A stretch of 64,000 nt of DNA from positions 53,176-117,175 of the forward strand of contig JAJPIM010000023.1 in assembly GCA_021324775.1 (NCBI GenBank), in the 5' to 3' direction. Positions 37,191-51,500 of the stretch are shown in pieces. Positions within the stretch are counted from its first letter, which is position 1. Each line of letters starts with the position of its first letter. This DNA comes from Gemmatimonadota bacterium (GTDB lineage Bacteria > Gemmatimonadota > Gemmatimonadetes > Gemmatimonadales > Gemmatimonadaceae). Below the pieces are notes generated by a model, which did no database searches, was not told the DNA's origin, and was given only the letters and a program-made list of their open reading frames with translations. The position numbers were made by a program, and so were the translations under genes.

Positions 37191-37454
37191 TTCGGCCGCG
37201 CATGCTATGCCTCCGGAGCTATCCACGGCGTGACTATCCGCACCTCACTTTTGCACCCGATCACGGATCCTCTGACGGCCCGCTGACGGCTGGCACCCAC
37301 TGTCTCACACATGCGGTTGGCCGGATAGCAGCGAGTGGGACGCTCGCGGCGTGCCCAAGCGACTGGCTCGGCGCTCTGGACGGCGCTGCCGAGTCTTGTG
37401 CTGGCGCGGGCGGCACGCGCGTGGGACGCGCTGGTGGCTGAATCGGCGCGGCGC

Positions 37455-38105
37455 GTGTCGGAGGACAAGGGAAAGCCTGCTGAGGAAGCCGACCGCACGC
37501 TGCTCAAGCGGCTTGCGGCCGGCGATGAAGAGGCGCTCGAGCGTCTCTTTCTTGCCCACGCCGGCGCACTGCACCGGGTAGCCTACCGGTACCTCCACTC
37601 ATCGTGGGCCGCGCGCGCCGTCGTGCAGGACGTGTTCACCGCCGTGTGGTGGCGGCGTACTACGCTTGCTGTGCGCGGACCGATCGGCGCGTATCTCACG
37701 GTGGCCGTCCGGAACCGTGCGCGCACCGTCCTGCGCGAAGAGTTGCGCCGCCGAGAGCGTGACGCACGGTGGGTCGAGGACAGCGGGAAGCCGGAGAGCG
37801 AGAACAGCAAGCGTGCCGCCGCGGCCGAAGAGGCGGGAGGAACCCGAGGGCGGATGGCCCCCGGCGATCTCGCGGACGCACGAGCCGCCGTGCAGGCCGC
37901 GCTCGCCGCACTCCCCGATCGCCAGCGCACCGTCTTCCGGCTGCGCGTCGAAGAACAGATGTCCAACGCCGAAGTGCGGGCCGCGATTGGTGCGGTCTCG
38001 GTCAAGGCGGTCGAACGGATATTCTCCCGCGCGGTTCGCGCCTTGCGCGCGCGGCTCCTGCCGCCGGACGGCGGCCGAAGCCAACCCAGGCGCCGCGGCC
38101 GGTAA
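37455..38105 (+). CDS. ECF (sigma-70 family) RNA polymerase sigma factor, FecI-like
   Basis: Track ORF 37335..38105. A GTG at 37455 gives a typical ECF length. Region 2: LLKRLAAGDEEALERLFLAHAGALHRVAYRYL. Region 4: LPDRQRTVFRLRVEEQMSNAEVRAAIGAVSVKAVERIFSRA. Confidence 0.8.
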   Translation: MSEDKGKPAEEADRTLLKRLAAGDEEALERLFLAHAGALHRVAYRYLHSSWAARAVVQDVFTAVWWRRTTLAVRGPIGAYLTVAVRNRARTVLREELRRRERDARWVEDSGKPESENSKRAAAAEEAGGTRGRMAPGDLADARAAVQAALAALPDRQRTVFRLRVEEQMSNAEVRAAIGAVSVKAVERIFSRAVRALRARLLPPDGGRSQPRRRGR

Positions 38106-38111
38106 GGCGCG

Positions 38112-39338
38112 ATGCCGACGCCTCCCGAGCGTGCTTCGATCCTCGCCGCGATTCGAGCGGGGGTTTTGGCCTTGCGGCGGCGTCTACATGTCGTGAGGTA
38201 CACACTCCGCCCGGCGCGCCCCTGGCGTTTTCCGGTCACCACTCGCCGTACGCAGGCAGACTCGGCCGGCGATCCGGGCGTTTTGCTGGAAGGCTATCTG
38301 GTGAGCGAGCTGGGTGCTGTGGAGCGGGAGCTGTTCGAGTCCTGGGTCGCGATGGACAGCGACCGAGGGCTGACCATCGAGGCGCTTCGCCATTCGTATG
38401 ACGAGCCGTATGACGAGCCGGATGCGGGGGAGTGGTGGGCCGAGTGCCGGAAGCGGATACGTATGCCCTGGAGCGGGCGGTTGGGTGACACGGTCGACCT
38501 CACGGTGACCGGCTCTGACCTTCGGATTGTCAGGCCGGTCATTGCGACTACCGGCCGGTGGCTGTCGCCCGGATGGTTCGGTCTCGCGGCGTCGATTCTG
38601 TGTGTTTCGCTGGGCGTTTGGGCTTTCCACTCCAGGAGAGACTCCGCGGCTAGCGCCATGCATCTCGCCGAACACTCGTACGCGACGGCCCGTGGCGAGC
38701 GTGCGGTGCTCACGCTCGGTGGCGCGACTGTGGTCCTGGGTCCGGAAAGTGTGCTTCGGATTTCGGGCAGCTACGGCGTCCGTGATCGCACGGTCTCGCT
38801 CACGGGGCACGCCTACTTCGATGTCGCTCATGATGCTGGCCATCCATTCCGGGTGTGGGCCGGTGGAGTTCTGGCTGAGGACATCGGCACACGGTTCGAT
38901 ATCCGTGCGTACGGGCGCGATTCGGTGATGCGGCTCGTGGTCGCGGACGGCGCGGTCGTGATGCACACCCGGCGTGTCCCGGCGGACGGATCGCACGACA
39001 GCGCAGTGCCGATCTCGTCGGTGGTCGTCACCCGCGGGATGATGGCGACGGCCGGTGTGGACGACGTCGTGCGGGTGCGGTCCGGGCTCGCCGCGGACCG
39101 CTATCTGTCCTGGAGTGATGGGCGGCTGGCGTTCGACGACACGCCGCTACCTGAGGTCGTGGCGGAGCTCAGCCGGTGGTACGACCTCGACATTCGGCTC
39201 GGCGATGCTCGGCTCGCATCGAGGACATTGACCGCGTCCTTCGACGACCCAGCCGCCGATGTGCTGGTGGCACTCGAAGGCGCACTCGGCATACGCGCAA
39301 CCCGTGTGGGGCGTGTCGTGACGCTGTATCCGCCCTGA
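38112..39338 (+). CDS. FecR-family anti-sigma / transmembrane sensor
   Basis: Track ORF of 408 aa. One TM segment (WFGLAASILCVSLGVWAF). FecR domain, and a C-terminal signature: LAFDDTPLPEVVAELSRWYDLDIRLGD...LTASFDD. It starts 6 nt after the sigma gene. Confidence 0.85.
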   Translation: MPTPPERASILAAIRAGVLALRRRLHVVRYTLRPARPWRFPVTTRRTQADSAGDPGVLLEGYLVSELGAVERELFESWVAMDSDRGLTIEALRHSYDEPYDEPDAGEWWAECRKRIRMPWSGRLGDTVDLTVTGSDLRIVRPVIATTGRWLSPGWFGLAASILCVSLGVWAFHSRRDSAASAMHLAEHSYATARGERAVLTLGGATVVLGPESVLRISGSYGVRDRTVSLTGHAYFDVAHDAGHPFRVWAGGVLAEDIGTRFDIRAYGRDSVMRLVVADGAVVMHTRRVPADGSHDSAVPISSVVVTRGMMATAGVDDVVRVRSGLAADRYLSWSDGRLAFDDTPLPEVVAELSRWYDLDIRLGDARLASRTLTASFDDPAADVLVALEGALGIRATRVGRVVTLYPP

Positions 39339-39429: not shown

Positions 39430-42171
39430 ATGGATCGTCCTCGAGTCCGCCGAAGCACATCCGGTAACGTATGGCGAGTGCTGGTTTCGCTTGCCGCCAT
39501 GATGGTCGCCGTAAGCAGTGGTGCCGAGAATGCGGCGCCAGTGCCCGATCAAGTTCCGGCGTTCTACGCGGCGCCGGTGGATGCTGGCGGCAAGCTCCAG
39601 CGCCTCGACACGGCGCGAACCGCGATCCTCAGCCGGCGCATCACGATCGCTGTGCGTGATGCGACGATCCCGGAAGCACTGGCGGCGATCTCGGAGCAGT
39701 CGGGGCTGCGGTTTACCTACGACCATGCGGTATTGCCGGCCCGCACACGAGTGACGCTCTCCCGCCAATCAGTGACCGTCGCGGCGGCGCTGACCCACGT
39801 CCTGCGTGGCGCGAACGTGGACGTGGAGCTGACGCCAGACGGATTGGCGTCGGTTGTCGCACATCGTGCAGTTCAGGATAGCGGCGCGATCACGGGGCGC
39901 GTGACGGACAGCAAGACAGGGCAGGGGATCGCGCACGCCACGCTGCTGGTGGAGGGTATTGCGCGTGGCGCCACGACCGACGACAGCGGCGCATACCGGA
40001 TCGCGGACGTGGCACCAGGCACGTACACGCTTGGCGTGCGGTTCCTGGGGTACGTCGAGGCGCGGCGGACCGTGACGGTGGTCGCGGGCCAGTCGCTGGT
40101 GGTCAATGTGGCGCTCGTGCAATCAGTCAATCAGCTCGATCAGGTTGTCGTGGCCGGGACGGTTGTGCCGACCGAGGTCAAGGCAATTCCCACGCCGGTT
40201 TCGGTAATCACCGCGACCGACATCGATCTGCAACGGCCACAAACAGTCGCACAGCTCTTTCGGCAGGCAGTGCCGAGTGCGGTCGCATGGGATATTGCGA
40301 CGGATCCTCAGCAAACGAGCTTCGCCGTTCGCGGTGGCAGCACGCTCAATATCGGAGCTGGCTCGATGAAGGTGTACCTGGACGGCATCGAGGTCACCGA
40401 CCGTACGTTTGCTGCAGTCGACCCGGCAAGCATCGACCGGATCGAAGTAATTCGCGGCCCAGAAGCAGGGACGATCTACGGCTCCGACGCGATCTCTGGT
40501 GTCCTTCTGGTTACGACGCGACATGGCTCTCCCAACTCAACCCGTCCCGAGGTGAACCTCCAGGCAGCCGCCGGCGTGGTGCAAGGGCCGTATGCTGACC
40601 AGGGAGGAGGCAACGTGGCTCGGCAAGAGTACTCCGGGTCGGTCAATGGCGGCACACAGTCCGCCAGCTATTCTCTCGGCGGCGGCTATGCAAGCACCGG
40701 CAACTGGGTGGCCCAGGGTGCCACGTCAATCCCGAGTGGGTTCGGCAGTGTTCATATCGCGCAGGACCGTATCACGGTCGATATCACTGGCCGGGACTAC
40801 ATCCAGCAGGTGGGCGAGGCGTTTCCGCCGGACTTTGCGTCAACTGGCATTCCGACCTACACCAAGCCGACCAATCAGTTTCTGACTTCACAAGAGCAGA
40901 CGGTTGGCGCTAGCATCGGCTTCACGCCAGCCAGTTGGTGGCATCACTCGCTCACGATCGGAGTCGATCGCACTCTGAACGATCTCCGTTCGAGCGCTCC
41001 GGCTTTGACAACTCCCGCGGACACTTTTCTCACAGTCGACGAGCAGAACGAAAGCAGGCTGACCTTGGCGTACAACACGTCGGTTCTGCTACAGATCAAC
41101 AGGATGGTTTCAGCCAACGTGACGGCCGGCGTAGATCACTACGATCTCGGCAACGATTCGTATTTCACAAGCGGTGCGACCAACACCACAGGCACGATCG
41201 AGACCGATCCTGGCCAGCCGTTCACCGTCTCACGGGCACCGTTGACGAACACCGGCGTTTTTGTTCAGACGCAGGTGGGCGTGGCGGACCAATTGTTTTT
41301 CACGGCTGGAGTACGAGCGGAACAAAACTCGGCATTCGGGCAGCAGCTCGGGACACCGGTATCTCCTCGATTTGGGATTGCCTATGCCCCATCTCTTGGG
41401 TCGCTGACGCTGAAATTGAGGGCGTCGTACGGGCAAGCCATCCGGCCGCCCGATCCGGGCGAAGAGGAAGCGATCCTGACGCCGTCGACGCTCCAACTCG
41501 CCAATCCGCGGTTGAGTCCAGAGCGGCAGAGCGGTTGGGACACCGGGATAGATGCGGCGTTCGGCGGCCGCGGTTCGGTCGGGGTCACGTACTACGACCA
41601 AGTCGCCAGCGATCTGATTGATGGCGTGACAATCAACGCCGACACGAATCCTCAGGTCCAGCAATTCCAGAACCTCGGCCGGGTTCAAAACCGGGGTGTC
41701 GAGCTGGAAGGCACCGTGCGATTGGGGTTCGGCCAAATCGCCGCGCAATACGCCATCACGAGCAGCCGCGTCGAGTCGCTGGGCCCTTTGTACGGCGGCG
41801 ATCTCAAGGTGGGTGATCAACTGCTTGTCGTGCCGCAACATACTGGCGGCCTGTCGCTGGCGATGTTGCCGCTGCGCAGGACGACGGTCACGGTCGGACT
41901 ATCCTATGTGGGTACCTGGACGAACTACGACGTCCTCGCTGAACTGAGTTGCTTCGGCGGCACGGGACCCTGTGCGGCTACGTCCCGCGGATACATCCGG
42001 CCCTATCCGGGGTTTGCCAAGGCAAATCTGGCTGTTACGCAACAACTCACGTCTTTGGTCTCTGCATTCGTGACGGTAAAGAATGTCACCAACAACGACA
42101 CGTATGAATTCTTCAACGCTGAACCGATTCAGGGACGCGTAACGGTTGCGGGCGTCCGTGTCCGCTACTAA
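39430..42171 (+). CDS. TonB-dependent receptor/transducer with N-terminal STN signalling domain and CarboxypepD_reg domain
   Basis: Track ORF of 913 aa. Signal peptide. STN-like RITIAVRDATIPEALAAISEQSGLRFTYD. GRVTDSKTGQGIAHATLLVEG...GAYRIADVAPGTYTL. Plug (IDRIEVIRGPEAGTIYGSDAISGV), and a beta-barrel ending ...VRVRY. Confidence 0.85.
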   Translation: MDRPRVRRSTSGNVWRVLVSLAAMMVAVSSGAENAAPVPDQVPAFYAAPVDAGGKLQRLDTARTAILSRRITIAVRDATIPEALAAISEQSGLRFTYDHAVLPARTRVTLSRQSVTVAAALTHVLRGANVDVELTPDGLASVVAHRAVQDSGAITGRVTDSKTGQGIAHATLLVEGIARGATTDDSGAYRIADVAPGTYTLGVRFLGYVEARRTVTVVAGQSLVVNVALVQSVNQLDQVVVAGTVVPTEVKAIPTPVSVITATDIDLQRPQTVAQLFRQAVPSAVAWDIATDPQQTSFAVRGGSTLNIGAGSMKVYLDGIEVTDRTFAAVDPASIDRIEVIRGPEAGTIYGSDAISGVLLVTTRHGSPNSTRPEVNLQAAAGVVQGPYADQGGGNVARQEYSGSVNGGTQSASYSLGGGYASTGNWVAQGATSIPSGFGSVHIAQDRITVDITGRDYIQQVGEAFPPDFASTGIPTYTKPTNQFLTSQEQTVGASIGFTPASWWHHSLTIGVDRTLNDLRSSAPALTTPADTFLTVDEQNESRLTLAYNTSVLLQINRMVSANVTAGVDHYDLGNDSYFTSGATNTTGTIETDPGQPFTVSRAPLTNTGVFVQTQVGVADQLFFTAGVRAEQNSAFGQQLGTPVSPRFGIAYAPSLGSLTLKLRASYGQAIRPPDPGEEEAILTPSTLQLANPRLSPERQSGWDTGIDAAFGGRGSVGVTYYDQVASDLIDGVTINADTNPQVQQFQNLGRVQNRGVELEGTVRLGFGQIAAQYAITSSRVESLGPLYGGDLKVGDQLLVVPQHTGGLSLAMLPLRRTTVTVGLSYVGTWTNYDVLAELSCFGGTGPCAATSRGYIRPYPGFAKANLAVTQQLTSLVSAFVTVKNVTNNDTYEFFNAEPIQGRVTVAGVRVRY

Positions 42172-42186
42172 CCCCACACCGTCCAG

Positions 42187-44553
42187 ATGAACTTCACCGT
42201 GCGACCAATAGTGACATGGGGTGTCGCTGTGCTCGAGGCTCTCCTCGCCTCCAGCGGTGCACTCGCGCAGGCGTCCGATTCGTTATCCATCAGCGCCGCG
42301 CTATCTCAGCCCTTGTTCCTCGACTACATGCCAGTGTCGATGTCGCCCGACGGTCACGCGGTCGCCTATACGATCTGCTCCGTAGACCGCGTGAACAGCG
42401 ACACACTGATTGCCGGCTATACCCGAACGGGTGCTACGGGATCGGCGCGAGGCTGCGAGGTGTGGATCGCGGAGTTGAAGCGCAACGTGGCGGTTCGTCT
42501 CAATGACAGGCCAGGTGTGAACGCCTGGGCGCCTCAATGGTCGCCCGATGGAACGAGGGTCGCCTACTACTGTGATGCCAATGGTGTCGCGCGCCTGTGG
42601 ATCTGGGACGCGGCCGTCGGAACAAGTCATCCGGTTTCAGATGCGATCGTACGGCCTTACACGCCGCTCGAGGTCCCTCGGTGGACGCCGGACAGCCGCG
42701 ACGTGGTCACGCGGATCCTGCGGTATGGCACCACCCTGGATGCGACGAGAGGCAGCGAGCATCTCATCGGGATGTCCTGGGATACTGTGGGCCGAGTGCC
42801 TGGTTCGACGGTGGCCCTGTATCGAACTGACTCAACTTGGCGTACCCAGACTCGGCTCATACCCTCGACAGTAAGCCTATCCGAATCCTTCTATGCCGGT
42901 GACCTGGCGCTGATCCGCGTCGCCACGGGAAAGGTGACCGTGCTTGCGCACGGCTATAGGCCATTTGCGTACTGGGTATCGCCTGACGGCCGCTTTGTCG
43001 CATTTACTTCAATGCACGGTATAACGAATGCGACGGCCACCATCGCCGAGTACCGAGACGACTTGGTGGTGGTTCCACTCAACGACCGTGTGCCGCCTTC
43101 GCCGAGGCTGGTCGCAGACCGCGCAGTCATCTCGCCATATGGGACCGGGGTCGCCTGGTCGCCCCGGGGTAGCGCCCTCGCGTATGCGATCGCTGAGCCT
43201 GACGGAACTGAATCGTACAATATCCTTCACACAAACGACTGGAGCATCAAACACTATCTGGCGCCTGACAGCATCGGTCACAGGCTTAGAAGCCGGGACG
43301 GAGCTCAGCCGCTCCGATGGGATTCAGCCGGCCAAGTGCTGCTGATCGTATCCGACTCCACTGTGGCTCAACTCACCATTGATAGCAACTCGTTCCGCGT
43401 GGTGGCCCAGCCGCCCCGCGGGACGTCGATCGTCTCGTTCATCGGCCCGAGTACCGGCAATACGGCATGGGACGATGGCGGCAAAGGCCTTGTGGTTGTA
43501 TCTCGCAATGACTCGACCAAGCGGATGGGTTTTGCGAGGATCGACTGTCGCACCGGTGTGTGGACCCAGGTAACGGACGAGGAACAGTACATCGGGTCGA
43601 GACAATTCACCGCAAGCGACGTATCGGCCGATGGGCGGAGTCTCGTGTACGCATCAGAGGGAGCGGCGAGCCCCCGAGATCTATGGATTGCAGACACAAG
43701 CCTCGTCCACTCCAGGCGGCTGACCAATGTTGCTCCGTCGCTCGTCGGCAAATCTTTTGGCAAAACGCGGCTGGTCCATTGGAAAGCGGTCACCGGCGAG
43801 CCGGTCAGCGGTGCGCTGTTGTTGCCGTCCGATTATGTGCCCGGGCATCGGTATCCTTTGATCGTCTATCCATACCCGCGGGAGCACCGCTCCAACAATG
43901 TCTTCCGCTTCGGGCTTCAAGGGGAAGGCACTGAGAACATGCAACTGTTGGCGACGCGTGGGTTTGCGGTGCTGGCTCCTGACGCGCCAATCCGATTGAG
44001 CGATCAGATGCGGAGCTTGGCGGACGCTATCATGCCGGGTGTTGACCAGGTCATTGCCATGGGGATCGCTGACTCCGCACGCATTGGTCTGATCGGCCAT
44101 AGCTGGGGCGGTTACACGGTGTTGGCGCTGCTGGTACAAACTCACCGGTTCAGGGCCGCGATCATGAGGGGTGGATACGGCGATCTCTTTGCCGACTATG
44201 GCGAAATGCAAGGTACTGGCGCGACGTTCGGCCAGTTACGCCTCGAGTCGTGGCTGGGTACCACTCCGTGGAAGGACCTGGCGCGATACATCGACAACTC
44301 ACCCGTGTTCTTTCTCGACCGGGTGGATACGCCGCTACTGATCATCGAGGGTGGAGCGGAGACCACGGTTCCTCCGCACGAGGCGGCAGAGGTGTTCGTC
44401 GATCTGCGGCGGCTTGGGAAGGAGGTCGAGTACGCTCTCTACGGGGGCGAGAATCACGGAGAGATCGGATGGCGGTACGCGAATCAACAGGACTACCTGG
44501 CGCGGACGATTCAATGGTTCCAGAGATTTCTCGGAGACGCCGGGTCGAACTAG
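42187..44553 (+). CDS. secreted S9 (prolyl oligopeptidase family) serine peptidase; candidate lasso-peptide isopeptidase
   Basis: Track ORF of 788 aa. Signal peptide ...SSGALAQA. N-terminal beta-propeller-like repeats (WSPDG x several). C-terminal alpha/beta hydrolase with GHSWGGY. Sits 15 nt after the TonB receptor gene and is convergent with the lasso operon. Confidence 0.75.
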   Translation: MNFTVRPIVTWGVAVLEALLASSGALAQASDSLSISAALSQPLFLDYMPVSMSPDGHAVAYTICSVDRVNSDTLIAGYTRTGATGSARGCEVWIAELKRNVAVRLNDRPGVNAWAPQWSPDGTRVAYYCDANGVARLWIWDAAVGTSHPVSDAIVRPYTPLEVPRWTPDSRDVVTRILRYGTTLDATRGSEHLIGMSWDTVGRVPGSTVALYRTDSTWRTQTRLIPSTVSLSESFYAGDLALIRVATGKVTVLAHGYRPFAYWVSPDGRFVAFTSMHGITNATATIAEYRDDLVVVPLNDRVPPSPRLVADRAVISPYGTGVAWSPRGSALAYAIAEPDGTESYNILHTNDWSIKHYLAPDSIGHRLRSRDGAQPLRWDSAGQVLLIVSDSTVAQLTIDSNSFRVVAQPPRGTSIVSFIGPSTGNTAWDDGGKGLVVVSRNDSTKRMGFARIDCRTGVWTQVTDEEQYIGSRQFTASDVSADGRSLVYASEGAASPRDLWIADTSLVHSRRLTNVAPSLVGKSFGKTRLVHWKAVTGEPVSGALLLPSDYVPGHRYPLIVYPYPREHRSNNVFRFGLQGEGTENMQLLATRGFAVLAPDAPIRLSDQMRSLADAIMPGVDQVIAMGIADSARIGLIGHSWGGYTVLALLVQTHRFRAAIMRGGYGDLFADYGEMQGTGATFGQLRLESWLGTTPWKDLARYIDNSPVFFLDRVDTPLLIIEGGAETTVPPHEAAEVFVDLRRLGKEVEYALYGGENHGEIGWRYANQQDYLARTIQWFQRFLGDAGSN

Positions 44554-44626: not shown

Positions 44627-44770
44627 CTAGAGTTGGAACCCTACGCTGCCAGGTGCCATCCCCAAAAGGTGAATCCGGTCCACGGGATCTTTGGTGCCAG
44701 CAACAAACTGCTTCGTGGTCTCGACGAGACGGCCCGCGTTGGTGAGCTGCGGTGTGGTATAGCTCTTCAT
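44627..44770 (-). CDS. lasso peptide precursor (47 aa), not in the ORF track
   Basis: Own translation: MKSYTTPQLTNAGRLVETTKQFVAGTKDPVDRIHLLGMAPGSVGFQL*. AGGAGA/GGAGAT lies 4 nt upstream of the ATG, which is 26 nt downstream of the cyclase stop. The leader fits YxxPxLxxxGxxxxxTx. Confidence 0.8.
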   Translation of the reverse strand: MKSYTTPQLTNAGRLVETTKQFVAGTKDPVDRIHLLGMAPGSVGFQL

Positions 44771-44796: not shown

Positions 44797-46713
44797 TCAG
44801 GCGTGTTTGGAATGCAACTTCTGAGTCCTGCTAACGTTGTACTGATCTCTAGCAACTCGTGCGACCTCCGGTCCCCACCGGCCCGAGCGTACCTGCAACC
44901 ACAACTCGACATCGACAACCGACTCCACCATCCCACTCACGACTTCCGCATCCTCCGTATCCCGTCTATTTGCGTCTAGTTCGGCCTTTAGGCGCTCAGG
45001 GTCGATGACGCCCAGCGCACCCAGCATCGATTCGTTCAAAAGCGCGCGAATGAACCTGCTCTCCTTCAGTAGGGAGTGTACCGTCAGGCCTCCCGCGTTT
45101 CCTTTTCCTACTCGGGTGCGCACAACCTCCGGCACAATGCCGCGCATCGATTCGCGCAGCACCCATTTCCGCGCGTGAGGTCGAACACACATGGCCGCTG
45201 GCAGATGCAACGCGAATTCGACCAGCGGCCGGTGTAGGTATGGATGGCGGATGTCGAGCGCGTCTCGGTCTACACCGCTGCCGAGAATGGAGGGAATGGC
45301 GCCGACTGCCGATGCCAGCGCGAATTCGTATTTGGAGCCCGCGGGTCCCGAATACAGGAGACCCGAGCCGACTCGCTGGTTGAGGCGGTACTGTCGCACA
45401 AGACCAGCACTCACCCACGGCGGTACAGACGATTCCAGCCCGCGCACCACTAGTTGGCGGAGGCGACTCGGTATCAATGGCAATACGACGTTCTGATAGG
45501 CCAGATCCCAGAACGAGACGCGACCGATCGCTGCCCGGTGTACCATCTCCCGAAGTGCGTCCCTGACTCGTCCGCGGGCGACCCAATCTGCAAAGAAGAA
45601 CATCGTCCCGAGGAAGAGATTGTCGCCGCCGCTGCCCGTCAGCAGAGTTGAGCCGCCCGCAGCTGTCACCGCATCGACGACACCCCCGTCGCGGGCCGCA
45701 ACCGTGTAAGAGCAAACACAGGGCTGATCGAACCGGGGCAGATCATCGAGGATCGCCCACCGGTCCAGTTGATGCGGAATTAGCACATTTCGAATGCCGT
45801 AGTGCGCCACGACCGCATCGGAATACCAGCGTTCATCTGCGGCCGTGCCGATCGGATCCACGAATGAGACCGTGCCCCCAACACCGTCCGGGAGAGCGCC
45901 TTTCGATGCCATCCATTGGGCCGTGCTGACAACTGATGACGAGTCGAGCCCGCCCGACAGATGCGCCCACGTGCGCGGTCCGTCTGTAACACAATTCCTG
46001 ACTGCGTCAGTAAGGAGCTGGCGTACAGCATCGACTTGGTCCGTCTCAGACCGCAGATCGACGCCTTGGGCTTGCGCGTCGCTCACGTTCCAGTAACTCG
46101 CCACCCGCGGCAGCCCGTGCTCGAACCGCAGCACGCTCGCCGCCGGCAATGCCGACACACGCGGATACACGGTGCTCGCGGGATCAGGGGCGCAGTACGA
46201 CACCCACGCCGCCAGATATTCGATGTTGTAGTCGTCCCCTTGTGCCAGCAATTCCGCCCGGGAGGAGAACGTCACTACTCCAGGGCTGGGTGTCGCGTAA
46301 TACAACTGCTTTACCCCGAACGTGTCGCGCGCCGCAATCAGGGTCCGCGTATCCGCCTCCCACACGACAAAGGCGAAATCGCCCAGGAGACGCGCCACTC
46401 CCGCCGTCCCGCGCCGGAGCGCCACCTCGCCGGCAAGCCCGAGATCGCCAATCCCCGGATCGGCATCGCCCAGCAGCTCGAGCATCTCCGCCCGGTTATC
46501 GATGCGGGCCACGCCCACCACCGTCACTGGCCCCGATCGCACGATCGCCGGCGGACACGCACCGTGTTCCGGCCCCACGACCGCGATGAGTCCGTCCGCG
46601 GTCACCCAGTGGAGTGGATGATCCCGGCAGTACGGCGCTCCACGTATTACCGTGCGAAACGACAACGGTGGCGGGCCGCCATCGAGGCGCACCGCTCCCG
46701 CAAACATTCTCAC
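44797..46713 (-). CDS. lasso peptide cyclase (asparagine synthetase B homolog, McjC-like)
   Basis: Track ORF of 638 aa. The N-terminus MRMFAGAV lacks the Cys-2 glutaminase nucleophile. The ATP-pyrophosphatase motif HLSGGLDSS is present. 4-nt overlap with the B2 gene. Confidence 0.85.
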   Translation of the reverse strand: MRMFAGAVRLDGGPPPLSFRTVIRGAPYCRDHPLHWVTADGLIAVVGPEHGACPPAIVRSGPVTVVGVARIDNRAEMLELLGDADPGIGDLGLAGEVALRRGTAGVARLLGDFAFVVWEADTRTLIAARDTFGVKQLYYATPSPGVVTFSSRAELLAQGDDYNIEYLAAWVSYCAPDPASTVYPRVSALPAASVLRFEHGLPRVASYWNVSDAQAQGVDLRSETDQVDAVRQLLTDAVRNCVTDGPRTWAHLSGGLDSSSVVSTAQWMASKGALPDGVGGTVSFVDPIGTAADERWYSDAVVAHYGIRNVLIPHQLDRWAILDDLPRFDQPCVCSYTVAARDGGVVDAVTAAGGSTLLTGSGGDNLFLGTMFFFADWVARGRVRDALREMVHRAAIGRVSFWDLAYQNVVLPLIPSRLRQLVVRGLESSVPPWVSAGLVRQYRLNQRVGSGLLYSGPAGSKYEFALASAVGAIPSILGSGVDRDALDIRHPYLHRPLVEFALHLPAAMCVRPHARKWVLRESMRGIVPEVVRTRVGKGNAGGLTVHSLLKESRFIRALLNESMLGALGVIDPERLKAELDANRRDTEDAEVVSGMVESVVDVELWLQVRSGRWGPEVARVARDQYNVSRTQKLHSKHA

Positions 46714-47141
46714 GGCGCCATCCCCGCCCGACGCACCGCCGCGTCGAACGCCGTGAAGATCCGCACGTGCTCCGGGACGTCGTTGATCGGCTCACCGCGA
46801 TACTCGACCCACGCGTGTGCCATGAACGGGTACCGCTGGATCCCGAGCCGCATCTGCGCGGCGATGCCGCGGCACCGGAGATAGTCATACAACACCAGCG
46901 ACCGCTCGAGGCACTGCGCCCGGCCCGGGAAGAGCGCCGCTCCCATCGCCACCGCATACTCGATCGCGGCCACCACCCGCGGGTCGCCATCACCAACGAC
47001 CTCCACCCGAGCGATCCGGCGCTCGATCCGCTGCCGGGTCCGATCGTAGCCCGCGAGCTTGAGCGCCCAGCGCACGATCGTCACCCGCGCCAGACACTCC
47101 GCGGCGGACGGGACACGCAAGGCGCGGCGGTCAGCTCTCAT
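46710..47141 (-). CDS. lasso peptide biosynthesis B2 protein (transglutaminase-like leader peptidase)
   Basis: Track ORF of 143 aa: ...FPGRAQCLERSLVLYDYLRCRGIAAQMRLGI...FMAHAWVEYRGEPIND, the Cys/His/Asp arrangement of McjB-type proteases. Confidence 0.85.
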   Translation of the reverse strand: MRADRRALRVPSAAECLARVTIVRWALKLAGYDRTRQRIERRIARVEVVGDGDPRVVAAIEYAVAMGAALFPGRAQCLERSLVLYDYLRCRGIAAQMRLGIQRYPFMAHAWVEYRGEPINDVPEHVRIFTAFDAAVRRAGMAP

Positions 47142-47493
47142 GAGCGGCGCCCGATGTCTCCTGGATCAGTAAACCCGCCGCCCGCAGATGCCGAAGCAGA
47201 GTCGTGACGTCCTGCTCGACGGGATCCACGTCACCCACCAGTGGGACGTCGTACTCCGCCCGGATGGTCCCGACGATGGCCTCGAGCGTCGTCCCGTCCG
47301 CGAGCAGCTCCCACACCCGCGCTCCGACGTCATTCAGCGTGTGGTACCGGCCGCGAACTGGATCAAGCAGCACCGTCTCACCGGCGCGCGTGGCCGACAT
47401 CACGTGCAGCGGACGCACCAGCCGGCCACGAAACTCCGCGTCTCGTGCAGCACCAGGCGCGGCCCGGCGGATGAAACGCTCCACAAACCGCAT
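47131..47493 (-). CDS. lasso peptide biosynthesis B1 protein (PqqD-like RiPP recognition element)
   Basis: Track ORF of 120 aa: ...GETVLLDPVRGRYHTLNDVGARVWELLADGTTLEAIVGTIRAEYDV...DVTTLLRHLRAAGLL. GAGAGGA lies 7 nt upstream of the ATG. 11-nt overlap with the B2 gene. Confidence 0.85.
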   Translation of the reverse strand: MRFVERFIRRAAPGAARDAEFRGRLVRPLHVMSATRAGETVLLDPVRGRYHTLNDVGARVWELLADGTTLEAIVGTIRAEYDVPLVGDVDPVEQDVTTLLRHLRAAGLLIQETSGAAHES

Positions 47494-47663: not shown

Positions 47664-48575
47664 TCACTCCAGTGCTGTCATCGGTCGCGATCGGGGCCGC
47701 GCGACCTGGCCGGCGCGTGTTTCCAGCACCGGGTGAACGAGTGCGTTGCACGCGTACTCGAGCGCGGTCTCGAACTCCGCGCCCTCCCGCACGCGCGCCG
47801 GGGTCAGGCCGCCCAGATATTGCTGCATGAGACGGGTGATGGAGCTCGCGTGCGCGAAATGCCGGAGCCGCTGGATCCGCCGGGCCGGCCACCCATGCTC
47901 CGACATCAGCCACACGGCGTCCAGCGCCCGCACGGTCTGCAACACCACCCGCGCCGTCGCCCACCCCGATCGCACGAGCCGCCGCTCCACTGTCCTCGGC
48001 GACACCCGGCTCCATCGCGCGAGTTGATCCACTCCACGCCCACTCGTCGCCTTGAGCACCGCGATCGCGAGGAAAACCCGGAGCGGCGATGGCGCCAGCG
48101 GCAGTAGCCGCCGCAGAATCACCGGCACCGCACTCGATGGCTGCCCGCCCGTCATCACTCGGCGCAGCGCCGGCGGCAGCGGCTCCGCGGGCCGTACCAC
48201 GAACTCGATCCGTAACCCCGGGACCATCAACGCGGGCAACGCGTCGATCGTCAACCGGTCGGCGCGATCGTACACCACGATCGGCACTCTGCCCAAACCG
48301 CTCCCCGCTGCTCTCTGCCGCCATCCCACAATTCCGGCACGCAGGGCGTCGGCATCGGCCACCACGACGTCGATTGGCCCGCCCGCCATCGCTTCACCAA
48401 CCGCGTCCATCGAATCGAGGTATCGCAACACCGTCGCGTGCGCGAGCTGCTCGCCGATCATGCTCCGGTCGCCACCCCCGCGCAGCACCACACCGACTAC
48501 CGGTTTCGGCGGCCGGTCCAACACACTTGGCTCCGTACTCCTCACGGCATTCCCCTCGTCCTGCGATATTGGCAT
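47664..48575 (-). CDS. pseudo-receiver + AraC-like HTH regulator (paralog C), immediately upstream of the lasso operon
   Basis: Track ORF 47664..48593; the first ATG is at 48575. It has the same two-domain layout as 35897..36736. HTH: GVDQLARWSRVSPRTVERRL...RIQRLRHFAHASSITRLMQQYLGGLTP. Confidence 0.7.
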   Translation of the reverse strand: MPISQDEGNAVRSTEPSVLDRPPKPVVGVVLRGGGDRSMIGEQLAHATVLRYLDSMDAVGEAMAGGPIDVVVADADALRAGIVGWRQRAAGSGLGRVPIVVYDRADRLTIDALPALMVPGLRIEFVVRPAEPLPPALRRVMTGGQPSSAVPVILRRLLPLAPSPLRVFLAIAVLKATSGRGVDQLARWSRVSPRTVERRLVRSGWATARVVLQTVRALDAVWLMSEHGWPARRIQRLRHFAHASSITRLMQQYLGGLTPARVREGAEFETALEYACNALVHPVLETRAGQVARPRSRPMTALE

Positions 48576-49100
48576 GACGCGACCTCGGTCCACACGAGCC
48601 GGCTACGGCTTGCTCCGTATTGAATGCATGGACAAGCTCCACCGCGCTGACAAGAGGCGCACGCGTCCGCACTTGCAATTATTTCGTCGCACCGGCGTGT
48701 GTCTGCCAAAAACCGTTTACCGCGTTACGCGAACAGTTGGTGTGTCACCCGCCGGCGATATGTTCTCGCTCCGTCTTTACCGAGATCACACACGCGTCGG
48801 GGAACGCGACATCACGCGGGCTCGGGATGACGGCCGGATGACACCGCCACCAATGGGAATGGCAGCAGATATTGTGGCCGCATGACGCAGGCATGACGGT
48901 GGAACGACGACCGCTTGACGCTGCTGCGCCACGCACGGCCGGTATGATCGGATGCAACAATCCGCCACCTTCCGATGCTGCTGTGCCGTTTTGGCGCGCG
49001 GCTCGTACGCGGACCCCTTTCCCCGGGCGGTGCCTCCGGCTCCCGAATCCTGCCTCTTCTATAGTGGTGACCCCCGTCGCCGCGGATTCGTCCACCTTCC

Positions 49101-51500
49101 GTGGATAGGGATCGCCGCGGTCGGCCCGCACCCTGGGCGTCGCTTATCACGCTGCTCACCGCAGCTTATGTCGCGGCCTACCTCATCTACCTGGTCTGGA
49201 GCGAAAGCCCGGGTTGGGAGACGAGGCCTCTCGTGCACGGCATCGTCACTGACCTGGGGTACCTCCCGGTCAATCTTCTCATCGCCGCCGTCTTCTGGTG
49301 GGCCGCGCGCCGTGCCGCACAATATCCCGGATCGGCGCCCTCCCGCGACGCCATCAGTGACGCCGCGCCGAGCCAGACGCTCGCCCGCGCGCTCCGGCTC
49401 GTCGCCCTGCAATCCGCCCTCACCGCTGTTGGCGACATCGCCTGGTGGTATGTCGACATCGTCCAGGGCCGCGACCCCGTCAACTCCTGGGCAAATGGCA
49501 TCTACCTCGCCAGCTACGTGGTCATGCTGGCCGCCCTCGCCAGCATGCCCCGCGGGCGCCGCGCCAGACTCGAATGGTGGAAGTTCGCCCTCGATGCCGC
49601 CACGGTCCTCCTCGGCGGCGCCATCGTCATCGGGGTTGTCGTCCTCTGGCCACGTGCCTCCGCTCAACCTGCCGGCGGGACGCTCTCGTTCGAACTCGCC
49701 TACCCGCTCGCCGACCTCCTCATACTTCTGGGCATCACGACGGTCGCGCTCCGCCCCACCGGCCATCCGCCCGCCCCTCTCATCGTCCTGCTCGTCAGCC
49801 AGATCGCCTGTATCGCGAGCGATGTCCTCTACACGATCGTGTTTCTGCGCGGGACAGGCCCCGAAATCCCGTCCACTCCGGTCTGGAGCACGGCGCTACT
49901 CGGCGTCAGTTATGTCCTCCTCGCCGCGAGCGGCGAATGGTATCGCCGAGTGCCCGAACCGGAACCTGGTCCTGGCGGGGCGGCCGCGGCCGGCGAGCTG
50001 GCGGCCGATGACGCCATCGAGACGATGCACACCGCCAGCCCGCTTCCCTACATCGCCGCCGGCGCCGCCGCCACTCTCCTCATCTTCCTTGCCTGGCAAA
50101 GCTGGCCCGCGCCGCTCAGCGTCCTCGTCATCGCCGCCGTACCGGTCTTCGCCCTGATCGCTGTACGCGGAGTCCTCTCCAGTCATCAGAACGTGAGGCT
50201 CCTCACCGAGAACGCCGCTCGCACCGCGGAATCCCGCACTCGCTCACAACTCCACGCGCAACTCGTCAACGCCCAACGGATGGAGGCGGTCGGGCAACTC
50301 GCTGGCGGAGTCGCCCACGACTTCAACAACATCCTGACAGCCATCAGCGGCAACGCGGAACTGGCGATGGAGTCGCTCCCGCTCGACTCCTCCGCCCGCG
50401 ATGACCTACATGAGATCCGTGCCGGTGTCACTCGCGCCTCGGCCCTCACCCGCCAACTCCTGGCCTTCAGCCGCCGGCAAACGCTCCACCCACGCGTGGT
50501 CGATCTCAACACGGTGGTCGCAGGCTGCGAACCGATGCTCGCCCGCCTCATCGGCGAACACGTCCACCTCGAAACACATCTCGCTCGCAACGTCTCCTCG
50601 ATTCTCGCCGACCCTGGCCAGATCGAACAGGTACTGGTCAATCTCGTCGTCAACGCCCGTGACGCCATGCCCGGCGGCGGTCGCGTTCAGATCGAAACCG
50701 GAGAAGTAGTCATCACGCAGCCGGATCCGGTGAGGTGGCCCGGTCTCGTGCCCGGCCGTCATGTCCGCCTCTCCGTCCGCGACACGGGATGCGGCATGGA
50801 TCGCGAAACGCGCAAACGTGCCTTCGAACCGTTCTACACGACGAAGCCCCAGGGCAAAGGCACCGGACTCGGGCTCGCCACCGTCTACGGCATCGTCACG
50901 CAATCCGAAGGCTTGATCTTCATCGACAGCGAGCCCGGACTCGGCACGACCGTCGCCGCATACTTCCGCCCGACGGCGGCCAGGTCGCCATCGCCTCCAC
51001 TGCCCGCATCCTCCGCCGGCGCGCGACCGGCCGCCGGCAAAGGCGAGACGATTCTCGTCGTGGAGGACGAGCCGGCCGTCCGCCAACCAATAGCCCGCGC
51101 CCTCCGGCAGCAAGGCTACGTCGTACTGGAAGCAGAAGACGGCATGCATGGTCTCGATGTCAGCGCCCGGCACGCGAACGCGATCGATCTCGTGATCAGC
51201 GATGTCCGCATGCCACGCCTCATCGGCCCAGCGATGGTCGATCGGCTCCGCAGTGAACGCCCAGGGCTCCGCGCCATGTTCGTGTCGGGGCACACGTCGG
51301 CCGATCGCGGCGTTCCACCATCCCTCATCGCCGCGCAGCTCCTCGAGAAGCCGTTCACACTTCCTACGCTCTTTCGAAGAGTGCGGGCCGCGCTCGACAG
51401 TCCGCCTCCCCAAAGCGGGGAATCACCCGCGGGACCGGAGGCTGCCGCCACCGTCGGCGCGGCCGCAGGCGACCCCGATGAGGACTCCGGCGGGCTCTGA
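49101..51500 (+). CDS. hybrid sensor histidine kinase with polytopic membrane sensor domain and C-terminal receiver
   Basis: Track ORF of 799 aa (GTG start). About 10 hydrophobic segments. H-box [42 protein letters not shown]. Receiver: ILVVEDE...DVRMPRL. Confidence 0.85.
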   Translation: MDRDRRGRPAPWASLITLLTAAYVAAYLIYLVWSESPGWETRPLVHGIVTDLGYLPVNLLIAAVFWWAARRAAQYPGSAPSRDAISDAAPSQTLARALRLVALQSALTAVGDIAWWYVDIVQGRDPVNSWANGIYLASYVVMLAALASMPRGRRARLEWWKFALDAATVLLGGAIVIGVVVLWPRASAQPAGGTLSFELAYPLADLLILLGITTVALRPTGHPPAPLIVLLVSQIACIASDVLYTIVFLRGTGPEIPSTPVWSTALLGVSYVLLAASGEWYRRVPEPEPGPGGAAAAGELAADDAIETMHTASPLPYIAAGAAATLLIFLAWQSWPAPLSVLVIAAVPVFALIAVRGVLSSHQNVRLLTENAARTAESRTRSQLHAQLVNAQRMEAVGQLAGGVAHDFNNILTAISGNAELAMESLPLDSSARDDLHEIRAGVTRASALTRQLLAFSRRQTLHPRVVDLNTVVAGCEPMLARLIGEHVHLETHLARNVSSILADPGQIEQVLVNLVVNARDAMPGGGRVQIETGEVVITQPDPVRWPGLVPGRHVRLSVRDTGCGMDRETRKRAFEPFYTTKPQGKGTGLGLATVYGIVTQSEGLIFIDSEPGLGTTVAAYFRPTAARSPSPPLPASSAGARPAAGKGETILVVEDEPAVRQPIARALRQQGYVVLEAEDGMHGLDVSARHANAIDLVISDVRMPRLIGPAMVDRLRSERPGLRAMFVSGHTSADRGVPPSLIAAQLLEKPFTLPTLFRRVRAALDSPPPQSGESPAGPEAAATVGAAAGDPDEDSGGL

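Follow-up and report, generated by a model that had tools for sequence, protein, structure and literature searches.

A predicted class II lasso precursor with Gln at the first core position from an uncultured Gemmatimonadales bacterium, in a family with a relaxed ring start

We analysed a 64,000-nucleotide stretch of DNA (the window) from contig JAJPIM010000023.1 of an uncultured soil Gemmatimonadales bacterium (assembly GCA_021324775.1) and conclude, with a probability of roughly 0.8, that a 47-codon open reading frame (ORF) on its minus strand encodes a class II lasso peptide precursor (A) with the cleavage register and ring proposed in a preliminary description made from the sequence alone. 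The translation is MKSYTTPQLTNAGRLVETTKQFVAGTKDPVDRIHLLGMAPGSVGFQL followed by a stop codon, in which a predicted 20-residue leader, MKSYTTPQLTNAGRLVETTK, precedes a predicted 27-residue core, QFVAGTKDPVDRIHLLGMAPGSVGFQL. This core lacks Cys, as expected of class II (no disulfide), and begins with Gln, outside the canonical Gly, Ala, Ser or Cys. The gene, its set of biosynthetic enzymes, the leader register and the conservation of that register across a family of related loci are what the sequences show, and within this family Gln1 appears as one case of a relaxed first position.

The precursor has the marks of a real gene. The coordinates 44627-44770 given in the preliminary description were correct; the gene lies on the minus strand, and the plus-strand reading of the same segment yields no meaningful protein. 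A Shine-Dalgarno sequence, AGGAGA, lies 6 nt ahead of the ATG, which itself follows the cyclase stop codon by 26 nt, and this position after the cyclase gene (C) is conserved in more than 110 loci. An orthologue (P0002, locus L001; core QFVPGTKDP...) is 89% identical and differs by 8 synonymous and 5 non-synonymous codons, so the frame is the conserved one and under selection. A word-indexed search with the 47-residue precursor returned only itself and one 89% orthologue, and phmmer, run in full over 1.84 billion representatives, contributed nine more short relatives at E <= 1e-3. The top phmmer match, P0194, was rejected as a compositional false positive, being a highly repetitive protein of 1124 residues with ATYTPVQRTHEYGKLCGSD-type repeats, and a Pfam scan of the precursor gave no match. 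Terminator and promoter scans found nothing exceeding shuffled expectation, and for the 73 nt that separate the two convergent genes the RNA fold was not significant (z = -1.66).

Counting back from Gln21 places Tyr4 at -17, Pro7 at -14, Leu9 at -12, Gly13 at -8 and Thr19 at -2, while Asp28 and Asp31 occupy core positions 8 and 11. The Tyr/Pro/Leu/Thr spacing, which the preliminary description had given as that of lasso leaders, is exact here and documented in the literature, where YxxPxL occupies -17 to -12 and Thr(-2) is recognised as determining cleavage (PMC10368454). For comparison, 44 cyclase homologues were aligned and the alignment was used to fetch 80 genome and 80 metagenome loci; the named genome loci were nearly all Gemmatimonadota, with one labelled Acidobacteria and one Pseudomonas. 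A strict leader pattern, Y..P.[LIVM]...G.....T., was scanned in six frames through the window and these 160 related loci (duplicate L002 excluded), giving 165 occurrences in 2.9 million residues. The window precursor and 162 matches in related loci lie on the cyclase strand with a tail of 10-60 residues, starting just downstream of the cyclase match among the matches listed, and the window contains a single match of this kind. Among the resulting 148 unique precursors, a cut directly after T-x, which corresponds to the Gln21 start, places Asp or Glu at core positions 7-9 in 147 and also maximises Gly, Ala, Ser or Cys at position 1 (100/148). Shifting the cut by -1 (Lys20 start) gives 127 and 5, by +1 gives 142 and 45, and by +4 (Gly25 start) gives 27 and 71. 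The Gln21 start with its Gln1-Asp8 ring, as first described, therefore fits better than the shifted registers, and the Lys20 and Gly25 starts were rejected on these acceptor counts.

Because the strict scan is circular, presupposing the spacing under test, it was repeated with a looser criterion (Met, 1-8 residues, YxxP, and an ORF at most 1.1 kb downstream of the cyclase), which returned 186 unique candidates. Of these, 167 have Thr at Y+15 and another 16 have it at Y+14, so that it was missing in just three spurious-looking ORFs; an acceptor lay at core positions 7-9 in 180 of the 183 Thr-bearing candidates. The comparison of precursors from homologous clusters, which the preliminary description had suggested, backs the Gln21 start. 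Thr(-2) is essentially universal, and the Tyr/Pro/Leu spacing on which that description relied is exact in about 90% of relatives; in about 9% (loci L013, L036, L042, L048, L052 and others) one residue is missing between Leu(-12) and Gly(-8), which moves Tyr to -16. Gly(-8) is replaced by Ala in many relatives, so members of the family do not all keep a rigid leader spacing. In the closest subclade, whose cores end in GFQL, the ring pattern G5-x-x-D8-P9 is conserved, with Asp8 invariant and position 11 either Asp or Asn.

Gln at the ring start is, to judge from these sequences, no isolated oddity but an example of the loose constraint on the first ring residue throughout the family. Across the 180 acceptor-bearing Gemmatimonadota-family precursors, 17 residue types occur at position 1 (G 80, A 24, S 14, M 11, N 10, Q 8, I 8, L 6, T 5, R 3, V 3, K 2, F 2, and H, E, D and C once each), whereas Pro, Trp and Tyr never do; Gly, Ala, Ser or Cys accounts for 119. 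In the precursor's own subclade Gly is never first, and Q, M, T, H, F, A and S are seen. Gln1 also opens unrelated cores in other sublineages (QSPVGPFEP, QRLAKNIESD and QIGQKVAES). In 20 of 41 distinct multi-precursor loci, a single cyclase serves precursors with different first residues (for example I/Q, as in locus L028, M/I, S/A and E/T), which points to a naturally broad position-1 tolerance of the leader peptidases and cyclases of this family. No natural Gln1 lasso peptide, and no lasso peptide from Gemmatimonadota with an experimental characterisation, came up in a literature search in which subscription journals were poorly covered; the former thus appears not yet characterised.

The biosynthetic operon has the order B1-B2-C-A on one strand, with genes overlapping or closely spaced and all three enzymes recognised (Table 1): a PqqD-like recognition element (B1), a transglutaminase-like B2 and an Asn-synthetase-like C lie directly upstream of the precursor, the context expected of a lasso precursor. 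The best solved relatives of B1 are the lasso B1 proteins TbiB1 (5v1u, 4.6e-7) and TfuB1 (6jx3). B2 passes the NCBIfam lasso model NF033537 (5.1e-21, 75.4 bits against a cut-off of 33) and carries candidate catalytic Cys (AQCLERS), His (AHAWVE) and Asp (INDV) residues; a sequence search gave no informative solved relative. The cyclase, an asparagine-synthetase homologue with the PP-loop HLSGGLDSSS, probably starts at the ATG at 46707 (636 aa) and matches the NCBIfam lasso cyclase model NF033535 at 6.8e-52, while a profile search for solved relatives returned Asn synthetases and beta-lactam synthetase only, with no lasso cyclase structure. A 265-kb metagenome contig holds an identical stretch, and the nearest genome relatives are uncultured Gemmatimonadales metagenome-assembled genomes with cyclase identities of 63-78%.

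Table 1. Features of the lasso locus in the window.
Feature	Position	Strand	Basis
Lasso precursor gene A	44627..44770	minus	Translation, ribosome-binding site, orthologue and family register tests
Lasso cyclase C	44797..46713	minus	Pfam Asn_synthase (8.5e-32) and GATase_7; gene call in locus L002
B2 leader peptidase (transglutaminase-like Cys protease)	46710..47141	minus	NCBIfam lasso_biosyn_B2 NF033537; Pfam Transglut_core3 (4e-21)
B1, PqqD-like recognition element of RiPPs (peptides made by the ribosome and modified after translation)	47131..47493	minus	Pfam PqqD (4.2e-20)
Putative regulator, 303-309 aa, upstream of B1	47664..48593	minus	Weak AraC-type helix-turn-helix in the C-terminal half
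Exported S9 serine peptidase (beta-propeller and alpha/beta hydrolase)	42187..44553	plus	Pfam Peptidase_S9
TonB-dependent receptor	39430..42171	plus	Pfam STN signalling, CarboxypepD_reg, plug and barrel domains
FecR-type anti-sigma factor	38112..39338	plus	Pfam FecR and FecR_C
Extracytoplasmic function (ECF)-type sigma-70 factor	37335..38105	plus	Pfam Sigma70_r2 and r4_2; gene call in locus L002

Convergent with the operon, on the plus strand, run genes for an ECF sigma factor, a FecR protein, a TonB-dependent receptor and an S9 peptidase, and none of the called genes up to about 10 kb from the precursor in each direction was reported to have an ATP-binding cassette (ABC) transporter domain. 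The receptor, which has an alternative start at 39499, scores under the cut-off for every NCBIfam SusC/RagA and TonB family, and a TonB-dependent receptor lies downstream of the cyclase in 63 related loci. The putative regulator upstream of B1 matches no family significantly (Pfam HTH_18 E 2e-4, 22 bits, under cut-off) and keeps its place in 25 related loci. Divergent from the operon, a hybrid histidine kinase/response regulator at 49101-51500 on the plus strand shares 74-88% identity with its counterparts in the closest related loci (L003, L005 and L084) and may be part of the regulation of the cluster.

The S9 peptidase, whose 3' end is 73 nt from the precursor stop, is 788 aa long and has a signal-peptide-like N-terminus together with Ser639 (GHSWGG) and His757, both invariant among relatives; at the acid position the close clade has Glu (AETTVP) and wider relatives have Asp. 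Its best NCBIfam match is the Atxe2 family of lasso peptide isopeptidases (3.1e-47, with the next family at 1.2e-16), at 161.7 bits against a cut-off of 400, and AtxE2 is the top hit in a single-sequence PDB search (5.5e-19). A 35-sequence profile ranked a Geobacillus S9 carboxypeptidase first (8wt1, 4.5e-87), AtxE2 second (2e-64) and SpI-IsoP sixth. Foldseek with a confident AlphaFold2 (AF2) model (predicted local distance difference test score 85.9) likewise put S9 carboxypeptidases first (8wt1, 3.7e-40), with SpI-IsoP at rank 19, and cannot tell isopeptidases apart from S9 carboxypeptidases or DPP IV; the S9 carboxypeptidase 5yzo is also among the nearest solved relatives. Because of the gene context, a lasso isopeptidase is the likelier reading of this enzyme, at about even odds. 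The neighbourhood here matches the layout published for known isopeptidase clusters, in which the peptidase has a TonB-dependent receptor and sigma/anti-sigma genes beside it (PMC9266682); such clusters have been reported mainly from alpha-proteobacteria (PMC13352647).

The precursor ends in GSVGFQL (its last 7 codons, 44627-44650), and 78 of the 148 strict precursors end in G[FYH]x[LIV] (for example L003:7944 and L085:7930). Within these 78, Gly occupies -7 in 73, Ser -6 in 46 and Val -5 in 59, giving the consensus G-S-V-G-F-x-L; the C-terminal motif is more conserved than the ring, and 12-16 variable residues separate the acceptor from the aromatic residue. Counting only loci with enough downstream DNA, 53 have an S9 peptidase or TonB-dependent receptor gene in convergent orientation and 18 do not; the motif is present in 46 of the former versus 2 of the latter, an association confounded by phylogeny. 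Gly is first in just 21 of 71 precursors from loci with these genes, compared with 27 of 29 from loci without them. From the sequence pattern we infer that Phe25, the conserved aromatic at -3 from the C-terminus, would be the lower steric plug of a topology with a long loop and a two-residue tail, and V-G-F may be the segment seated in the ring; alternatively, the motif may serve as a handle that the receptor or peptidase recognises. A literature text search, with subscription journals poorly covered, found no mention of the GSVGF motif. The motif and its associated S9, TonB-receptor, FecR and ECF genes are more interesting than Gln1 itself. Longimicrobiales-type loci (L065:7868-10773, L060, L062, L067 and L142) carry arrays of up to six Gly1 precursors with a different conserved tail, LE[LF]IN[WF]R..., and lack the S9/TonB-receptor module.

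In the proposed pathway, B1 would bind the leader through Tyr(-17)xxPro(-14)xLeu(-12), and the B2 cysteine protease, steered by Thr(-2), would cut between Lys20 and Gln21. The ATP-dependent cyclase would then activate the Asp8 side chain and link it to the Gln1 alpha-amine, giving a macrolactam of eight residues with the 19-residue tail threaded through it; the predicted product, QFVAGTKDPVDRIHLLGMAPGSVGFQL minus H2O, has a monoisotopic mass of 2834.490. Along the lines proposed for astexin-type clusters, the adjacent TonB-dependent receptor would take up the peptide, FecR and the ECF sigma factor would signal, and the S9 peptidase would process the peptide in the periplasm. Whether Gln is pyroGlu in the mature product, a point raised in the preliminary description, is ill-posed: in the lasso the alpha-amine is already in the isopeptide bond, so Gln1 cannot be pyroGlu, which would mark an uncyclised by-product only. 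The linear pyroGlu core has a mass of 2835.474, 0.984 Da heavier than the predicted lasso.

Two recent discoveries lower the novelty of a Gln1 start. Metanodin (2025), from a soil-metagenome member of the Steroidobacterales, is the first proven Asn1 lasso peptide, confirmed by tandem mass spectrometry, and its ring start was assigned from Thr(-2) and ring size (PMC12670498). It resembles the present system in its carboxamide first residue (Asn there, Gln here), its origin in an uncultured soil bacterium and an inversely oriented peptidase in place of an ABC exporter, and its precursor gene was overlooked by antiSMASH. It differs in its fused B protein and proteobacterial A-B-C order, against a split B1/B2 and B1-B2-C-A in another phylum here, and in that its fragmentation shows nine linear ring-opened forms, whereas the 8-residue ring here is predicted. 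The palassoptides A1 and A2 (2026, from oral Actinomyces) start with Phe1 and Glu1 and are class II peptides with 8-residue rings; PalC made every E1X variant except Pro, Gln included, most PalA2 position-1 variants gave a signal lower than wild type, and a large-scale survey cited there has Pro as the sole residue never predicted at position 1 (PMC13632552). The likeness extends to class II, a ring of eight residues (predicted here), non-canonical first residues, one cyclase serving two precursors with different first residues, and broad position-1 tolerance. The palassoptides are unlike the present system in coming from Actinomycetota, in that the text consulted describes no peptidase or TonB-dependent receptor genes for them (PMC13632552), and in that tolerance was found there by mutagenesis, whereas here natural variation (17 residues, 20/41 loci) suggests it. 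The list of experimentally observed starts in the metanodin paper (G, A, S and C) agrees with the one in the preliminary description, but the rarity of other starts was overstated there, because Asn1, Phe1 and Glu1 natural products and all 19 non-Pro engineered position-1 variants of one scaffold have been described (PMC12670498, PMC13632552).

The surroundings most resemble astexin-type clusters (AtxE2, SpI-IsoP): both lack an ABC exporter and have a convergent S9 peptidase, a TonB-dependent receptor and a sigma/anti-sigma pair, and among NCBIfam families the S9 protein matches Atxe2 best. In contrast to those clusters, the S9 protein here reaches only 161.7 of 400 bits and is structurally at least as near S9 carboxypeptidases, a weak AraC-like ORF stands where their GntR regulator sits, and B is split with A downstream of C, where they have a fused B and A-C-B order. 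Astexin precursors end in acidic tails, whereas the precursors here end in GSVGFxL. Fusilassin/fuscanodin (Trp1) and citrulassin (Leu1) are earlier exceptions to the Gly, Ala, Ser or Cys start, and published variants agree with WYTAEWGLELIFVFPRFI as the fusilassin Trp1 core. Both are characterised products of split B1/B2 systems with a bulky first residue outside the canonical four, as here, but they come from actinobacterial A-C-B1-B2-type clusters with no peptidase/TonB-receptor module, and their cores are unrelated. Microcin J25 and ubonodin combine an 8-residue ring with a long loop and a tail of one or two residues; if Phe(-3) is the lower plug, the predicted topology here would be similar, with eight residues in the ring, about 15-16 in the loop and two in the tail, but there is no sequence similarity.

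Several observations weigh against our reading of the precursor. Cleavage and cyclisation are predictions throughout, and the counts, those behind the register (147/148 and 180/183) as well as those on the first residue, are of phylogenetically related sequences rather than independent events. No curated precursor or leader model was passed, the nearest being NCBIfam lasso_leader_L3 (E 0.024, 14.7 bits against a cut-off of 19), and these models were evidently not built from this lineage; the cyclase, too, scores under the curated cut-offs of the NCBIfam lasso cyclase models. Locus L039 (7935-8560) and locus L131, of the same sequence, encode four tandem precursors, for example ...DVVRATE followed by KGLFSKTVPETG, with Glu at position 10 in the T(-2) register, which points to a 10-residue ring or else to a cleavage site that leaves Thr at -3 (Gly1-Glu9). 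A precursor-like ORF at L143:7950, YSAPVVITNNVITETK followed by SGTPVGVKAVGIPESVNVHIFRV, has no Asp or Glu at core 7-9; with these exceptions, T(-2) is not infallible in the family. Moreover, a free N-terminal Gln can turn into pyroGlu, which would compete with the macrolactam if cleavage and cyclisation were loosely coupled. A product that is cleaved but poorly or never cyclised, whether through pyroGlu formation or a cyclase that disfavours Gln1, would leave little or no lasso, and the spontaneous cyclisation of N-terminal Gln in general chemistry and the reduced signal of most PalA2 position-1 variants both lean that way. We regard it as unlikely, given that Gln1 is retained in the 89% orthologue, where core changes are mostly synonymous, that it recurs in at least three other sublineages, and that the biosynthetic genes are all intact.

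A different register is less probable still, and very unlikely overall. The preliminary description had pointed out that a Lys20 start (a 9-residue Lys-Asp28 ring) and a Gly25 start (a 7-residue Gly25-Asp31 ring opening on a canonical Gly) are both of allowed size, which is true of this one sequence, and core Gly5 is conserved in the closest subclade (37 of 78 in the wider clade), but the family counts disfavour both. A Lys20 start would also put R, K, L, Q or M at position 1 in the relatives, and a Gly25 start would move the invariant Thr to -6, contrary to all precedent (PMC10368454). The Gly25-Asp31 ring is ruled out because position 11 varies between Asp and Asn, being Asn in about half of the closest relatives, while Asp8 is invariant. 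A frame left open by chance in GC-rich DNA is an extremely improbable account of the ORF: many spurious ORFs do overlap the region on both strands, yet this one has a ribosome-binding site, a position after the cyclase gene kept across the family, synonymous-biased divergence and a conserved leader motif and acceptor, and orthologous clusters retain it. The alternative that carries most weight, possible though the less favoured, is that the mature product is shorter than the 27-mer, with the S9 enzyme acting as a carboxypeptidase that trims the GSVGFQL tail and not as an isopeptidase. Its nearest solved relatives by profile and Foldseek are indeed S9 carboxypeptidases (8wt1 and 5yzo), and the co-occurrence of the motif with S9/TonB-receptor genes would fit trimming at a conserved C-terminus. 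Against this stand Atxe2 as the best curated family, AtxE2 as the top single-sequence PDB match, a TonB-dependent receptor and sigma/anti-sigma synteny typical of known isopeptidase clusters (PMC9266682), and the confounding of the motif association by phylogeny.

A Gln1 lasso peptide would extend the short list of proven ring starters, and the broad natural tolerance at position 1 would be useful for lasso engineering. In Gemmatimonadota, an almost unstudied phylum, the clusters described here have a first residue that drifts among 17 amino acids, even between close orthologues, and mining rules that expect Gly, Ala, Ser or Cys first, or A upstream of C, would overlook such precursors. A broader reading, which we consider rather unlikely, is that these clusters form a distinct lasso subclass with a C-terminal recognition handle, a diversifying ring and nearly position-1-agnostic cyclases, whose products act as signals or scavengers. 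If so, the invariant G-S-V-G-F-x-L would be recognised by the cognate TonB-dependent receptor, the S9 peptidase or both, and the ring, first residue included, would be under diversifying selection; the peptides would act outside the cell as strain-specific signals or scavengers, which TonB-receptor/FecR/ECF-sigma cell-surface signalling would sense before the periplasm dismantles them. Most worth following up are the free first position, the C-terminal motif and the peptidase/TonB-receptor/sigma module, in a new phylum and with a B1-B2-C-A operon. The purpose of isopeptidase-type lasso peptides has been a standing question since astexin, and this family adds another set of peptidase/TonB-receptor/sigma-factor clusters, phylogenetically independent of the first, for probing their function.

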